From IMG/VR virus record IMGVR_UViG_3300010400_000024, positions 1 to 56,899 of that record: a stretch of DNA of 56,899 nt. One strand, given 5' to 3'. Below, piece by piece: positions 1 to 56,899 of this stretch. Position 1 is the stretch's first letter. The number at the start of each line of letters is the position of its first letter. The notes beneath the pieces are model-generated. The model searched no databases and was not told the DNA's origin. It saw only the letters and a list, made by a program, of their open reading frames with translations. The translations under genes and the position numbers were made by a program. The stretch is from a virus (lineage: Duplodnaviria > Caudoviricetes).

Positions 1-11
1 ACATTAAGATC

Positions 12-416
12 ATGCAAAACCCTGTTGTAGAAGTAAAAGGGCCAACGTTCCTCAATTGGGTACAAGTAGTTCAAAAGGTACTATCGAAAGAAGATATTGC
101 ATTCCATAAACGACATTACATTTGGGCATCTAAGCAACTTCTACGCAGATGGAAGCTGCTAGGTAATGTTAGTGCATGGACTTGTATTCACAGGCATGAA
201 GGTGCCTGGAATGATAGTGGTTCTCCTTATTGGGGAGGACTTCAAATGGATATTGGATTCCAAACAACTTATGGCAGCGATATGATTAACAAGTATCACG
301 GTTATGCTAATGTTTGGCATCCCTACGATCAAATGATCGTAGCTCAACGTGCTTACAGGAGTGGAAGAGGTTATTATCCTTGGCCCAATACTGCAAGGTA
401 TTGTGGTCTAATCTAA
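12..416 (+). CDS. Rpf-like (resuscitation-promoting factor) lytic transglycosylase; may be 5'-truncated at the window edge
   Basis: W-x-C-I-x-x-x-E (catalytic Glu) ... YWGGLQM ... Q-x-x-VA-x-R ... G-x-x-PWP-x-x-x-x-x-C, the Rpf/transglycosylase pattern; frame is open back to position 1. Confidence 0.8.
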   Translation: MQNPVVEVKGPTFLNWVQVVQKVLSKEDIAFHKRHYIWASKQLLRRWKLLGNVSAWTCIHRHEGAWNDSGSPYWGGLQMDIGFQTTYGSDMINKYHGYANVWHPYDQMIVAQRAYRSGRGYYPWPNTARYCGLI

Positions 417-49140: not shown

Positions 49141-49251
49141 TAGCTTGCATAGACTGTAGAGCGCATACCGAGCGAAAGGTGGCACTCATGGAGAGTTGGC
49201 AAAGTCAAGGGGTTCGATTCCCTCCACATTCTCTACAGTCTATGGAGGCTA
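49141..49251 (+). ncRNA. stem cassette 2 enclosing a mini tRNA-like RNA
   Basis: 21-bp stem TAGCTTGCATAGACTGTAGAG/CTCTACAGTCTATGGAGGCTA with G.G; GGGG-TTCGATT-CCCT T-arm. Confidence 0.75.
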
Positions 49252-54947: not shown

Positions 54948-55224
54948 TGTTGGTTCGCTTAAAGGCTTGTTGGCTAAAGAAGAAGAACGTGAAAAGAAAG
55001 AAACAGCCAACAAAATTCGTAATAAGAACTTCCCTACTGAACCGAGGGATTTCGATACTTGGTTTAAGCTACCTACTAGATTCGCTGACTGTCACCAGGC
55101 AGATGATTGTATTGATCCAAGGGTTGATAGGACTAAAACTGGACATACAATGGTAGCGATGGTAAATGGTAGTGAGATTTGTCGCTACTGTTTTCTTGCA
55201 GGAGCTAACAAAGTTTCTACATGA
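54892..55224 (+). CDS. hypothetical Cys-containing protein
   Basis: CHQADDC...ICRYC. Confidence 0.55.
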   Translation: MQEIIYSLRGLKVTQKPLDVGSLKGLLAKEEEREKKETANKIRNKNFPTEPRDFDTWFKLPTRFADCHQADDCIDPRVDRTKTGHTMVAMVNGSEICRYCFLAGANKVST

Positions 55225-55679
55225 AAGCGATTATCGGTCATATCGAGAAGGTCTACAATGCAATATTAGATCAAGCAACTGTTGAAGTTATTGATGGTAA
55301 CGAGTTGCATATTTACCGAGGGCAGATATCTAAGCTGTATGCTACCCTTGGTATTGCACAATCGTACTACACTGAGATATTTCAGCAGTTGGACGATCAG
55401 GGTTGTATCGTTATGCTTCAACGTGGTAGTAAAGGGGTAGACAGTGTTATCGTATGCCTCCATGAGCCGTCTGAGGCCGGATACCAGCCCCCGCGAGGGC
55501 CGAGGGACTTGACAAGCGCCGAGGACTTTGCTAATATGATCGAGGAACACAGATTGCTCGTTAAACTAGTAGGAGGTATGGATATCGTAGAAGCGTTTAG
55601 AGAGTTCGATAAGAGGTTGAAGCGCCTAGAAGATATACCGGGGCGCGAGAAGTTCAGTAAAACACAAACCGAAGTATAA
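55221..55679 (+). CDS. putative winged-helix protein
   Basis: ISKLYATLGIAQSYYTEIFQQLDDQGCIVMLQRG. Confidence 0.55.
   Translation: MKAIIGHIEKVYNAILDQATVEVIDGNELHIYRGQISKLYATLGIAQSYYTEIFQQLDDQGCIVMLQRGSKGVDSVIVCLHEPSEAGYQPPRGPRDLTSAEDFANMIEEHRLLVKLVGGMDIVEAFREFDKRLKRLEDIPGREKFSKTQTEV
55509..55537 (+). promoter_or_regulatory. early promoter (intragenic) for 55698 and RNA cluster 2
   Basis: TTGACA-N17-TAATAT with TG extension. Confidence 0.75.
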
Positions 55680-55697
55680 CTAAGGAGAGAATAGAAA

Positions 55698-56057
55698 ATG
55701 GCACAGGCAATTGACGCTCAGATGATTCAGGCACTTCTGTCGAAGCAGAAGAGTCGTGGTGATTACGATGCAGACCTTCGTGATTTCCTTTCGTCTGGTA
55801 ACGCTGGTGTAGAGATCGACCTGTCGAGTGGTCGTTTTGCTGGTAAGCGTGCGAAGCAGGTTAAGACTGGCTTCGACAATGCCCGTAAAAAGACTAACGA
55901 TCAGGGTCTTGTTCATCCGGGTGGTACTCTCGTTAAGGTCATTGCTATCAATGACAAGAACGATGATGAGGGTAATCCGAAGGGCGAGCAGGAAGAGCAT
56001 GTTTATCTCATCAATACTGCTCTGCTCGGTAGTGAAGAGGACGAAGCCGCAGCGTAG
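55698..56057 (+). CDS. small protein, paralog of 47640-47936
   Basis: AAGGAG RBS; shared motifs and acidic tail. Confidence 0.75.
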   Translation: MAQAIDAQMIQALLSKQKSRGDYDADLRDFLSSGNAGVEIDLSSGRFAGKRAKQVKTGFDNARKKTNDQGLVHPGGTLVKVIAINDKNDDEGNPKGEQEEHVYLINTALLGSEEDEAAA

Positions 56058-56112
56058 TATAGTAAGTTCCCTTGCAAAGGGAGAACATGGAGAGGGGCAC
56101 GAAAGTGCCTCT

Positions 56113-56209
56113 TTCCATATTAAGCCTCTGAAAAACGGTGTGATTAGTAAATCAGTTTGAACGGTAGCAAGTAAATACCGTTACGGTCACTCAGAGGCTT
56201 AATATGGAA
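56113..56209 (+). ncRNA. stem cassette 5
   Basis: 19-bp stem TTCCATATTAAGCCTCTGA/TCAGAGGCTTAATATGGAA; inner hairpins TGATT/AATCA and AACGGTA/TACCGTT. Confidence 0.7.
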
Positions 56210-56245
56210 GTATCCATAAAGTACGTAGCCGAAGTATAGGGCTAC

Positions 56246-56345
56246 CGGCACAGTGGGCACCTTAAGCAAGTGCGATAGTAGTGTTACGGGATAGTTACTC
56301 TGTAACAGCTTAAACTACTAGCGGGTTCGACTCCCGCAAGTGCCG
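56246..56345 (+). ncRNA. tRNA-like pseudoknotted RNA with canonical T-arm (not a decoding tRNA)
   Basis: CGGCAC/GTGCCG closing stem, GCAC/GTGC arm, TAGTAGT/ACTACTA arm, GCGGG-TTCGACT-CCCGC. Confidence 0.7.
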
Positions 56346-56373
56346 TTGTTATCACACAAGCAAAGGAAAAACG

Positions 56374-56454
56374 ATGAATGATCTACTAGATGTAATCATG
56401 TTCTTCGTAACAGTGGGAACGATTGTTCTCTTTGTTGTAGCTGTAACGCATTAA
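56374..56454 (+). CDS. single-TM peptide (26 aa)
   Basis: AAAGGA RBS; MNDLLDVIMFFVTVGTIVLFVVAVTH. Confidence 0.55.
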   Translation: MNDLLDVIMFFVTVGTIVLFVVAVTH

Positions 56455-56539
56455 CTCAGGTAAGATGGTATAGGATTCGATATCATATAAAAATCCTCAA
56501 AATTTTGAATTTGGAATCTGGTTAAAGAGGTTTAGAGAT

Positions 56540-56568
56540 TTGACAAGCGGTTAATTTTGTGCTACCCT
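56540..56568 (+). promoter_or_regulatory. promoter driving an apparently non-coding transcript
   Basis: TTGACA-N17-TACCCT with TG extension; AT-rich upstream element. Confidence 0.7.
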
Positions 56569-56575
56569 TATGGGT

Positions 56576-56673
56576 GCAGCGTCCCGGTTGGAAAGGCTGC
56601 TAGGAGGGTTAGCGTGGAACGTTCTTGTGTGAGGCGTATGAGCGTTAGCCCTCCTACTAAATAATCACACAAG
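56576..56673 (+). ncRNA. hairpin RNA whose loop is complementary to the TCACACAAG motif
   Basis: TAGGAGGGTTAGCGT/GCGTTAGCCCTCCTA; loop CTTGTGTGA versus TCACACAAG at 56665. Confidence 0.6.
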
Positions 56674-56679
56674 GCAGGC

Positions 56680-56785
56680 GTTAATGTTGCTTAGACTCCC
56701 TACTCTACACTTTGACCCTAAAGGGCTTGCGGCTAATAGGGATGAGATGGCGCATAGTGTAGAAGGGAGTCTAAGGAACATTAAC
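56680..56785 (+). ncRNA. stem cassette 6
   Basis: GTTAATGTTGCTTAGACTCCCT..TCTACACT / AGTGTAGA-AGGGAGTCTAAGGAACATTAAC with G.G. Confidence 0.75.
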
Positions 56786-56841
56786 TCCGTCGCAAAGTTA
56801 ATGTTCCGTAGCGAGACTACCCCCCGTAGTCTCTCTCCCCC

Positions 56842-56892
56842 GGCGGGTAAGATAGAGGTTCCCCTGAATCCATCTTACCCGCCAATTTTATT
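56842..56892 (+). terminator. probable intrinsic terminator
   Basis: GGCGGGTAAGAT/ATCTTACCCGCC followed by AATTTTATT. Confidence 0.55.
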
Positions 56893-56899
56893 GTATACA

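Follow-up and report, generated by a model that had tools for sequence, protein, structure and literature searches.

Near the right end of the phage genome analysed here, at 56246..56345 on the + strand, lies an element that is almost certainly a real, conserved structured RNA and that is the positional counterpart of the tRNA-Leu(UAA) gene of related phages. Most likely it belongs to a small, previously undescribed set of tRNA-derived RNAs of uncultured soil siphophages, with four members. Two traits of the set are unusual, namely the pairing that its D-like loop probably makes with the anticodon region and the visible replacement of a tRNA-Leu gene. As a whole explanation we favour, with middling confidence, a tRNA-Leu-derived, non-decoding RNA that would be cut out by tRNA-processing enzymes.

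The window, by which we mean the whole of the DNA analysed, corresponds to a virus entry in IMG/VR that is 56,899 bp long, with a completeness rated at 97%. Its source is an uncultured soil siphophage, and it carries a siphovirus-like gene set comprising an SNF2-type helicase, primase, family A DNA polymerase, terminase, portal, major head protein and tape measure. No match to positions 55000-56899 was found at the DNA level in the phage collection, and no cultured relatives were found (the capsid is less than 28% identical and orf119 is without a match). The element sits in a hairpin-rich intergenic region, an almost non-coding stretch between orf119 (55698..56057, + strand) and the end of the record, where it closes a series of small genes on the + strand. 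The upstream gene orf119, which served as bait for homologous loci, has neither a PHROG or Pfam match nor an assigned function; its homologues number 29 at E ≤ 0.001 in a large protein collection, and P0002 to P0010 are 59-88% identical to it (five of these 78-88%). Shortly 3' of the element follow an ORF for a hydrophobic 26-aa peptide (56374..56454, + strand), which starts 28 nt downstream with a purine-rich AAGGA preceding its ATG, and a predicted conserved promoter-like site (56540-56568). Because about 1.1 kb separates the homologues of orf119 and of the window's first gene (12-416) in G003, a fully syntenic relative of 58.7 kb whose capsid is 57% identical, we take the two ends of the window to be contiguous in the phage.

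Scanning metagenome contigs with an alignment of orf119 homologues yielded 16 loci, and a covariance model built from the window sequence alone (R1) matched in three of them, each time on the + strand and downstream of the orf119 homologue: L034 (2542-2684, 96.9 bits), L033 (3260-3383, 69.5 bits) and L036 (1047-1143, 33.0 bits). Under a second model built from the four sequences (R2) the same elements score 117.9, 124.6 and 75.9 bits respectively, figures to be read as those of sequences from which R2 itself was built. All three fold independently into the architecture of the window element.

That architecture, a cloverleaf-like four-way junction in the minimum free energy (MFE) fold of the window element, is closed by an acceptor-like stem of 6 bp, P1, formed by CGGCAC (56246..56251) and GTGCCG (56340..56345; all coordinates of the element are on the + strand). 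All six of its pairs are standard in the four sequences, and five of the six change on both sides. Directly adjoining the closing stem is another 6-bp hairpin, P0 (GTAGCC, a 9-nt loop and GGCTAC; 56225..56245), which appears in the MFE folds of all four members, with the same stem sequence in L034 and L033 and CCGGT/ACCGG instead in L036. Inside P1, the linker J1/2 (AGTGG, 56252..56256), which reads AGUGG, AGUGG, AACGG and UAAUGG across the members and ends in GG in every one, leads into a D-arm-like hairpin, P2/L2 (GCAC-CTTAAGCAA-GTGC, 56257..56273), with a 4-bp stem in which all four pairs change on both sides and a 9-nt loop. This loop is unchanged in three members and reads TTGGCAA in L036; its letters TTAAGC (56262-56267) are the 5' partner of a putative pseudoknot. 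Two nucleotides, GA (J2/3, 56274..56275; R-A in all four members), separate P2 from the long arm P3 (56276..56320). The latter consists of an outer stem P3a, TAGTAGT (56276-56282) with ACTACTA (56314-56320), paired over 6-7 bp in all four members with five both-side changes; a variable inner hairpin P3b (56283-56306), in which GTTACGG (56283-56289) faces CTGTAAC (56300-56306); and a 7-nt bulge, AGCTTAA (56307-56313), whose GCTTAA (56308-56313) is the 3' partner of the putative pseudoknot. The inner part of P3 measures 33, 65, 45 and 22 nt in the four members and holds the partner of L2 at its 3' end. Directly 3' of P3a, with a 0-nt spacer, comes P4 (GCGGG-TTCGACT-CCCGC, 56321..56337), a canonical T-arm with a 5-bp stem and a G-C closing pair; a T-loop TTCGAYT sits on a G-C pair in all four members, and the stem is GTACG/CGTAC in L033. 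Two unpaired nucleotides, AA (J4/1, 56338..56339; AUA in L033), lie between the T-stem and the closing stem, which is followed by TT in every member.

Only on the + strand do the T-loop motif and several G-U pairs make sense. By sequence, a UUCRA-type loop on a G-C closing pair, allowing a U54-A58 type pair, is present in all four members, and a scan for T-arms (five standard pairs, a G-C closing pair and a TTCRANN loop) over both strands of the window and 31 loci returned five rows, two of them the element (in the window and its copy L001), two real tRNAs and one a weak, G-T-rich intragenic site. The first-pass annotation of this DNA had listed the stems, loops and complementary hexamers described above, all of which lie on the + strand at the coordinates given; it was also right that there is no CCA (TTGTT follows the stem in the window) and no normal 7-nt anticodon loop, the long arm carrying an inner part of 22-65 nt.

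In a model-guided alignment of the four sequences, 98.2% of the 111 pair cells hold standard pairs and both sides change at 22 of the 30 pairs, observed values that were reached by none of 500 shuffles; slid controls, with the partners moved by 1-3 columns, showed pairing in only 28-43% of cells. Since a model-guided alignment is fitted to the model, we also tabulated helices by hand from their coordinates. For P1, P2, P3a and P4, all 21 pairs proved standard in each of the four sequences, with 17 changing on both sides. The homologue search proposed in the first-pass annotation has yielded three homologues in which all helices are kept through compensatory changes. Four DNA sequencing runs gave one further contig of 303 nt (56313-56615), covering the last third of the element and downstream sequence; its sole change, at 56348, falls outside the stem, so this contig is uninformative on covariation.

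The known family thus comprises four sequences, three of them with identical loops. An IMG/VR scan with an exact 32-nt pattern gave no match, and the loci found with a 5' pattern (two, in IMG/VR) and a 3' pattern (one, in genome contigs) do not match R1, so we regard them as chance matches. Protein-based scans with orf119, orf152 and the orf119 alignment brought no further member, and among capsid and helicase relatives (20 loci) the element was absent from the 10 helicase loci and from the viral records of five capsid loci. Two loci from a T-arm pattern scan, L051 and L052, are not members: they carry the same T-arm because the scan pattern required it, and L052 is a different tRNA-like small RNA.

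Screening against known RNA classes left the element without a name. ARAGORN in its default mode reported no tRNA or tmRNA in the window or in the three homologous loci, and with introns allowed at default thresholds it found nothing in any of the four members. With relaxed settings it read the window element as tRNA-Ser(act) with a 7-nt intron or as tRNA-Val(tac), gave an unnamed type in L036 and made no call in L034 or L033; the two named calls use a different pairing scheme, and we rejected them because the homologues do not reproduce them. Rfam 15 gave no match at gathering scores across the whole window and nothing overlapping the element up to E = 10 (55900-56899), tRNA and ribozyme families included. 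In the homologues the Rfam tRNA model found no match up to E = 1, and the sole Rfam signal was a local 17-nt match of the T-arm to tmRNA at 16.6 bits (gathering score 47). The core of the first-pass annotation, that this is a novel T-loop non-coding RNA and tRNA mimic, is supported by this lack of recognition by ARAGORN and Rfam together with the strong covariation, and the outcome it had named as counting against itself, recognition as a standard or intron-containing tRNA, did not occur with ARAGORN in default or intron mode. We also considered and rejected an attP remnant, as the acceptor-like stem has both its strands and the scanned ORFs include no integrase.

Measured against a canonical tRNA, only the T-arm (5-bp stem, G53-C61, TTCRANY) is intact in all four members. 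In place of a 7-bp acceptor stem, a 2-nt linker and a direct junction with the T-stem, all four have 6 bp, 5-6 nt and 2-3 unpaired bases; where a tRNA has an anticodon arm with a 5-bp stem and a 7-nt loop, then a variable region no shorter than 4 nt, they have 22-65 nt inside the long arm and 0 nt before the T-arm. The D-loop nucleotides G18 and G19 have no counterpart in CTTAAGCAA, the loop of three members; a GG is present in the loop of L036 only, and the conserved GG stands in the linker instead. The discriminator position is G in three of the four.

L2 and the bulge letters GCTTAA are invariant in the window, L034 and L033, though nearly every neighbouring stem pair differs, and the two are complementary (TTAAGC/GCTTAA) over 6 bp in all three, extending to 7 bp in L033. 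In L036 the loop TTGGCAA faces GCCAA near the 3' end of the P3 inner part, which allows TTGGC/GCCAA pairing with new letters. Complements of equal length arise in 3.5% of shuffles of the P3 inner part for the window (696/20000), 4.3% for L034, 0.7% for L033 and 5.4% for L036, the first three figures being mutually non-independent. The TTGG of L036 may simply be the ancestral D-loop. Given three non-independent members and this possible ancestry, we rate the L2-bulge pseudoknot as probable rather than proven; it had been proposed in the first-pass annotation, and the joint change of both partners in the divergent L036 lends it moderate support. If it forms, P2 and P3 would lie side by side, unlike the D and anticodon stems of a tRNA, which are stacked.

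Related phages suggest where such an RNA may have come from. Three of the 16 metagenome loci, from more distant relatives whose orf119 homologues are 41-43% identical to that of the window (L039, L041 and L042), carry a normal class II tRNA-Leu(TAA) of 82-84 nt downstream of the orf119 homologue and its hairpins. Counting the window, 17 loci extend at least 500 nt downstream of an orf119 homologue, six further loci being too short; four have the element at this place, three (L039, L041 and L042) have tRNA-Leu(TAA), and 10 have neither, some of which may be one phage sampled twice. A small hydrophobic ORF comes right after the tRNA in L039 and L042, its start 1-2 nt 3' of the tRNA, and one also lies 3' of the element in the window, L034 and L036 (the ORFs of the relatives were identified by eye from the sequence).

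Beyond this shared site between orf119 and a small hydrophobic ORF, the class II tRNA-Leu(UAA) genes of the relatives (L039, L041, L042 and G003) have in common with the element the type of T-arm, a G+C-rich acceptor stem, the lack of an encoded CCA, the letters CTTAA and a D-arm like that of L036. The bulge letters read C-T-TAA-R-C in three members, compared with an anticodon loop CTTAAAA in tRNA-Leu, and the 5' half of L036, GG-GTGG-TTGGCAA-CTAC, resembles the tRNA-Leu D-arm GTGG-AATTGGTATA-CAC. Both covariance models weakly match the tRNA-Leu genes (12.5-21.6 bits) and leave the tRNA-Met of G003 unmatched; R2 also touches a tRNA-Tyr (15.6 bits, E 0.22), and when aligned by MAFFT the elements and the tRNA-Leu genes match poorly except in the T-arm. 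Unlike tRNA-Leu, the element lacks a variable arm and a closed anticodon loop of 7 nt, extra bases flank its acceptor-like stem, its D-like arm has a loop complementary to what was once the anticodon region, and neither tRNA finders nor the Rfam tRNA model detect it. From the shared position and these short similarities, rather than from a tree, we infer that the element probably descended from a phage tRNA-Leu(UAA). The locus would then show, in a natural setting, how a tRNA can become a new non-coding RNA, a tRNA gene apparently having been converted into a differently folded RNA that is maintained by selection, and L036, which looks like an intermediate, less remodelled form, would mean that such an intermediate is still extant.

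The acceptor/T-arm module is what RNase P, 3'-end nucleases, the CCA-adding enzyme and T-loop modifying enzymes read, and RNase P and 3' processing require this module only. The element has kept this module in the form of its acceptor-like stem and canonical T-arm, and is therefore a probable substrate of tRNA-processing enzymes. In the explanation that we favour, a phage tRNA-Leu(UAA) gene would have been remodelled so that its acceptor/T-arm half was kept and its D and anticodon half became a docked pseudoknot. The element would be transcribed within the rightward early transcript, where the host tRNA-maturation machinery would recognise the acceptor/T-arm module, with RNase P acting at the 5' side, followed by 3' trimming and perhaps CCA addition. 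Cutting would free a stable RNA of about 100 nt, leave the upstream mRNA with the P0 hairpin as its end, and free the mRNA of the small downstream ORF. The hairpin that adjoins the 5' end of the closing stem in all four members fits such a role, as do the ATG that stands 2 nt behind the stem in L036 and L033 and the ORF start 1-2 nt behind the tRNA in L039 and L042. As a candidate RNase P substrate the closing stem is unusual, since in tRNA numbering it would consist of a -1:73 pair and five pairs, 1:72 to 5:68, followed by two purine-purine mismatches; by our reading of its letters, it would form 13 layers when stacked on the T-stem.

We advance this processing mechanism tentatively and by analogy. 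Signals of the mascRNA type are tRNA-like structures in longer transcripts that are cut by tRNA-processing nucleases. Plant mitochondrial t-elements, as described in the part of the source available to us, are also tRNA-like and are cut by tRNA-processing nucleases to give mRNA ends (Forner et al. 2007, PMC1920247). Going by that partial account, both kinds share the mechanism proposed here, cleavage of our element itself being a prediction; both are found in organelles or eukaryotes and are non-homologous to it, and in our element the non-acceptor half is strongly conserved too, more than a signal for cutting alone would require. If release by processing is what happens, bacterial viruses resemble organelles in using tRNA-like punctuation.

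In most discussions, phage tRNA genes figure as aids to codon usage or as spares against defences that cut tRNA. The strict conservation of L2, the bulge, P2 and P3a argues for a further function, one that the processing model does not name, and the released RNA of about 100 nt would very probably have a further role beyond its processing. Our most attractive guess is that it acts as a decoy for, or partner of, a factor that reads tRNA-Leu. Taken by itself as the full account of the element, a trans-acting mimic or decoy for tRNA-Leu biology, which would titrate an anticodon nuclease of the host defence, a modification enzyme or LeuRS or, in a variant, pair with the anticodon loop of a tRNA-Leu, seems to us rather unlikely. 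It would explain why the two complementary segments stay invariant in three members amid changing stems and why TTAAGC/GCTTAA and the TTGGC/GCCAA of L036 can both be read as a Leu codon paired to a Leu anticodon, and it would supply the added function that conservation beyond processing needs calls for. However, a loop and bulge paired in cis would not be free to bind, the 70 scanned phage ORFs include no defence- or tRNA-related protein, and the Leu reading of L036 comes without U33 (it has C instead of U before its CAA) in a comparison of four sequences.

The same letters can be read as a self-contained codon-anticodon mimic, in which the anticodon letters TAA (CAA in L036) pair with a D-loop rewritten as TTA (TTG), an idea that we regard as unlikely. 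Were it true, the RNA might divert or sense factors that inspect the anticodon loop of tRNA-Leu, be it an anticodon nuclease of a defence system, an enzyme that modifies the wobble base or the decoding site of the ribosome, or could open up and capture host tRNA-Leu; it would then represent a so far undescribed phage counter-measure or regulatory principle and a hitherto unknown interaction with the tRNA-Leu machinery or host defence.

We think that the element no longer decodes, as its structure suggests: the former anticodon letters sit in a bulge between two helices and are complementary to L2. The opposite reading, that it is a still functional, unusual tRNA-Leu(UAA) in which a hairpin of variable length was inserted 5' of position 32 and is removed or tolerated, appears improbable to us. 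With the inner hairpin removed, three members have a 5-bp stem closing C-T-TAA-R-C, with U33 and a purine at 37, and the element stands at the position of a real tRNA-Leu(TAA). On the other hand, a variable arm is missing although tRNA-Leu is class II; the 5-6 nt linker after the acceptor-like stem, the 2-3 extra bases after the T-stem, and the discriminator G and the D-loop without GG, each in three of four members, are all at odds with a working tRNA; and L036 gives a non-canonical loop. Neither is there an evident way to remove the insert, which shows no bulge-helix-bulge motif, is too short for a group I intron and escapes the intron mode of ARAGORN at default thresholds, and a Pfam scan of the 70 phage ORFs found no RNA ligase, splicing nuclease, Ro60 or CCA-adding enzyme. 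Codon use in the window agrees with a non-decoding element. TTA accounts for 6.9% of its Leu codons (ORFs of at least 150 aa, 12,966 codons) and for 5.4% in its close relative G001, compared with 22.2% in G003, which has a real tRNA-Leu(TAA) and nearly the G+C of the window. This argument is not uniform, being mixed in the metagenome loci, where samples are small: TTA makes up none of 60 Leu codons in L033 and 11-20% in the tRNA-Leu loci, yet 15 of 99 in L034 despite its element, a figure that would suit a functional tRNA.

The small ORF behind the element brings up a role in cis, with the structure as a riboswitch-like or protein-binding leader of that ORF and the closing stem controlling its start codon. 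An ATG does stand 2 nt after the closing stem in L036 and L033, and the docked loop-bulge layout resembles what we take to be the usual form of small ligand-binding RNAs. The ORF starts 28 nt downstream in the window, however, where it has its own AAGGA, and about 50 nt downstream in L034; a complete tRNA-type T-arm would be unexpected in a riboswitch, and real tRNA-Leu genes occupy the same place in relatives. We give little credence to this reading. That the element is a decaying tRNA pseudogene or a chance fold without function is close to refuted: its folding energy is unremarkable (z = -1.21; equalled by 23 of 200 shuffles) and the family is rare, with no further member in the pattern and protein-based scans of IMG/VR or in the genome-contig pattern scan, but 98% of pairs are kept through 22 compensated positions and invariant loops lie between changing stems. 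Very improbable, too, are the tmRNA-like domain and the small self-cleaving ribozyme that the first-pass annotation had offered as options, because, for all that the T-arm equals the tmRNA consensus T-arm (the 17-nt local match) and the fold is compact and pseudoknotted, ARAGORN run with -m reports no tmRNA, a tag reading frame and an alanine-type acceptor are both missing, and nothing points to a ribozyme, no Rfam ribozyme family matching up to E = 10.

Returning to the favoured reading of a tRNA-Leu-derived, non-decoding RNA, tRNA mimics are well known as a kind, among them tmRNA, YrlA, viral tRNA-like structures and t-elements. The tRNA-like domain of tmRNA resembles the element in having the same T-arm, directly after a long helix and with no variable region; unlike tmRNA, the element has no messenger part, pseudoknot ring or CCA, and it has a D-like hairpin. 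YrlA of M. smegmatis is reported to be cut by RNase P and to receive CCA (Chen et al. 2014, PMC4201824). As far as the available part of that paper goes, YrlA and bacterial Y RNAs are like the element in being non-decoding, in having a tRNA-type T-arm and in that they may have arisen from tRNA, whereas YrlA ends in a Ro60-binding stem and has a loop-closed acceptor-like stem and a Ro60-adjacent gene (PMC4201824). The element ends in its acceptor-like stem, and with this opposite topology, no TROVE/Ro60 domain among the 70 ORFs and no Rfam match, we rejected an identity with YrlA. Bacillus cereus 'tRNA-Other', again in the portion of the source at hand, is a tRNA-derived gene outside translation yet with a cellular role; by its description it differs from the element in being chromosomal and still recognisable as a tRNA (PMC3399842).

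The element is undescribed in the literature searched, and Rfam 15 lacks the family. In the part of its text available, a catalogue compiled from IMG/VR, with 10,006 candidate viral RNAs, names tRNA-like ones only where they overlap ARAGORN calls (PMC10690425), and the family may be listed in its supplementary tables. The R2 covariance model can be used for annotating the family.

Between orf119 and the tRNA-like RNA (56246-56345, + strand) lie two conserved hairpins on the same strand. The pair comes immediately 3' of orf119: the first spans 56087-56118, and the second (56113-56131 paired with 56191-56209) has perfect arms of 19 nt. A TCCAT segment is common to the two, and within the combined span (56087-56209) it could pair with either its upstream or its downstream partner. 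The same two-hairpin layout follows the orf119 homologue in two metagenome contigs that carry the tRNA-like element (L034, L033) and in two relatives that have tRNA-Leu(TAA) at its position (L041, L039). The pair may act as a terminator/antiterminator-like switch or as a processing site.

On the other side of the element, a promoter-like site (TTGACA, 17 nt, TACCCT; 56540-56568, + strand), which L034 also has, precedes a conserved hairpin with 14-nt arms (56601-56656, + strand). The hairpin block retains 77-80% identity in L034 and in two other fetched loci (L032, L047). The promoter-like site was absent from the output of a simple promoter scan. The next transcription unit probably begins in this region (56540-56656), with a structured 5' leader.

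Two of the relatives with tRNA-Leu also contain, by our by-eye reading, a hydrophobic ORF of about 25 codons with a TTG start (L039, 1931-2010; L042, 1820-1900), the two copies of which differ mostly at synonymous positions. The ORF starts 1-2 nt past the tRNA, where a ribosome-binding site would not fit, and this arrangement suggests a leaderless mRNA produced through tRNA 3' processing.

The window was also compared with G003, a fully syntenic relative of 58.7 kb. Whereas G003 encodes tRNA-Leu(TAA) and tRNA-Met, the window has no tRNA genes, and TTA makes up 6.9% of its leucine codons versus 22.2% in G003, at near-equal G+C (45.2% and 45.8% respectively). The ends of the window (1-30 and 56684-56899) adjoin each other in G003, so the assembly behind the 'linear' record was probably circularly permuted or opened at an arbitrary point.

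Separate from the main element, a structured RNA with a T-arm was found at 49147-49244 (+ strand), inside a gap of about 950 nt without long ORFs. Several small hairpins lie within its 14 bp closing stem, together with an arm that reads GGGG-TTCGATT-CCCT, and the predicted fold was matched in stability by none of 200 shuffles (z = -4.64). Neither ARAGORN nor Rfam called it, neither the single-sequence (R1) nor the four-sequence (R2) covariance model of the main element matched it, and blastn found no similarity to it among the fetched loci.

A different tRNA-like small RNA gene occurs in an unrelated IMG/VR contig, L052 (398-483, - strand), with a TTGACA/TATAAT promoter immediately upstream and a T-run downstream. 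ARAGORN did not call this RNA at default settings. Its acceptor stem is a perfect 7 bp, its D-arm contains GG, and a loop of just 4 nt caps its 'anticodon' stem; the T-arm is the same as in the main element, and the RNA scored 34.2 bits against R2.
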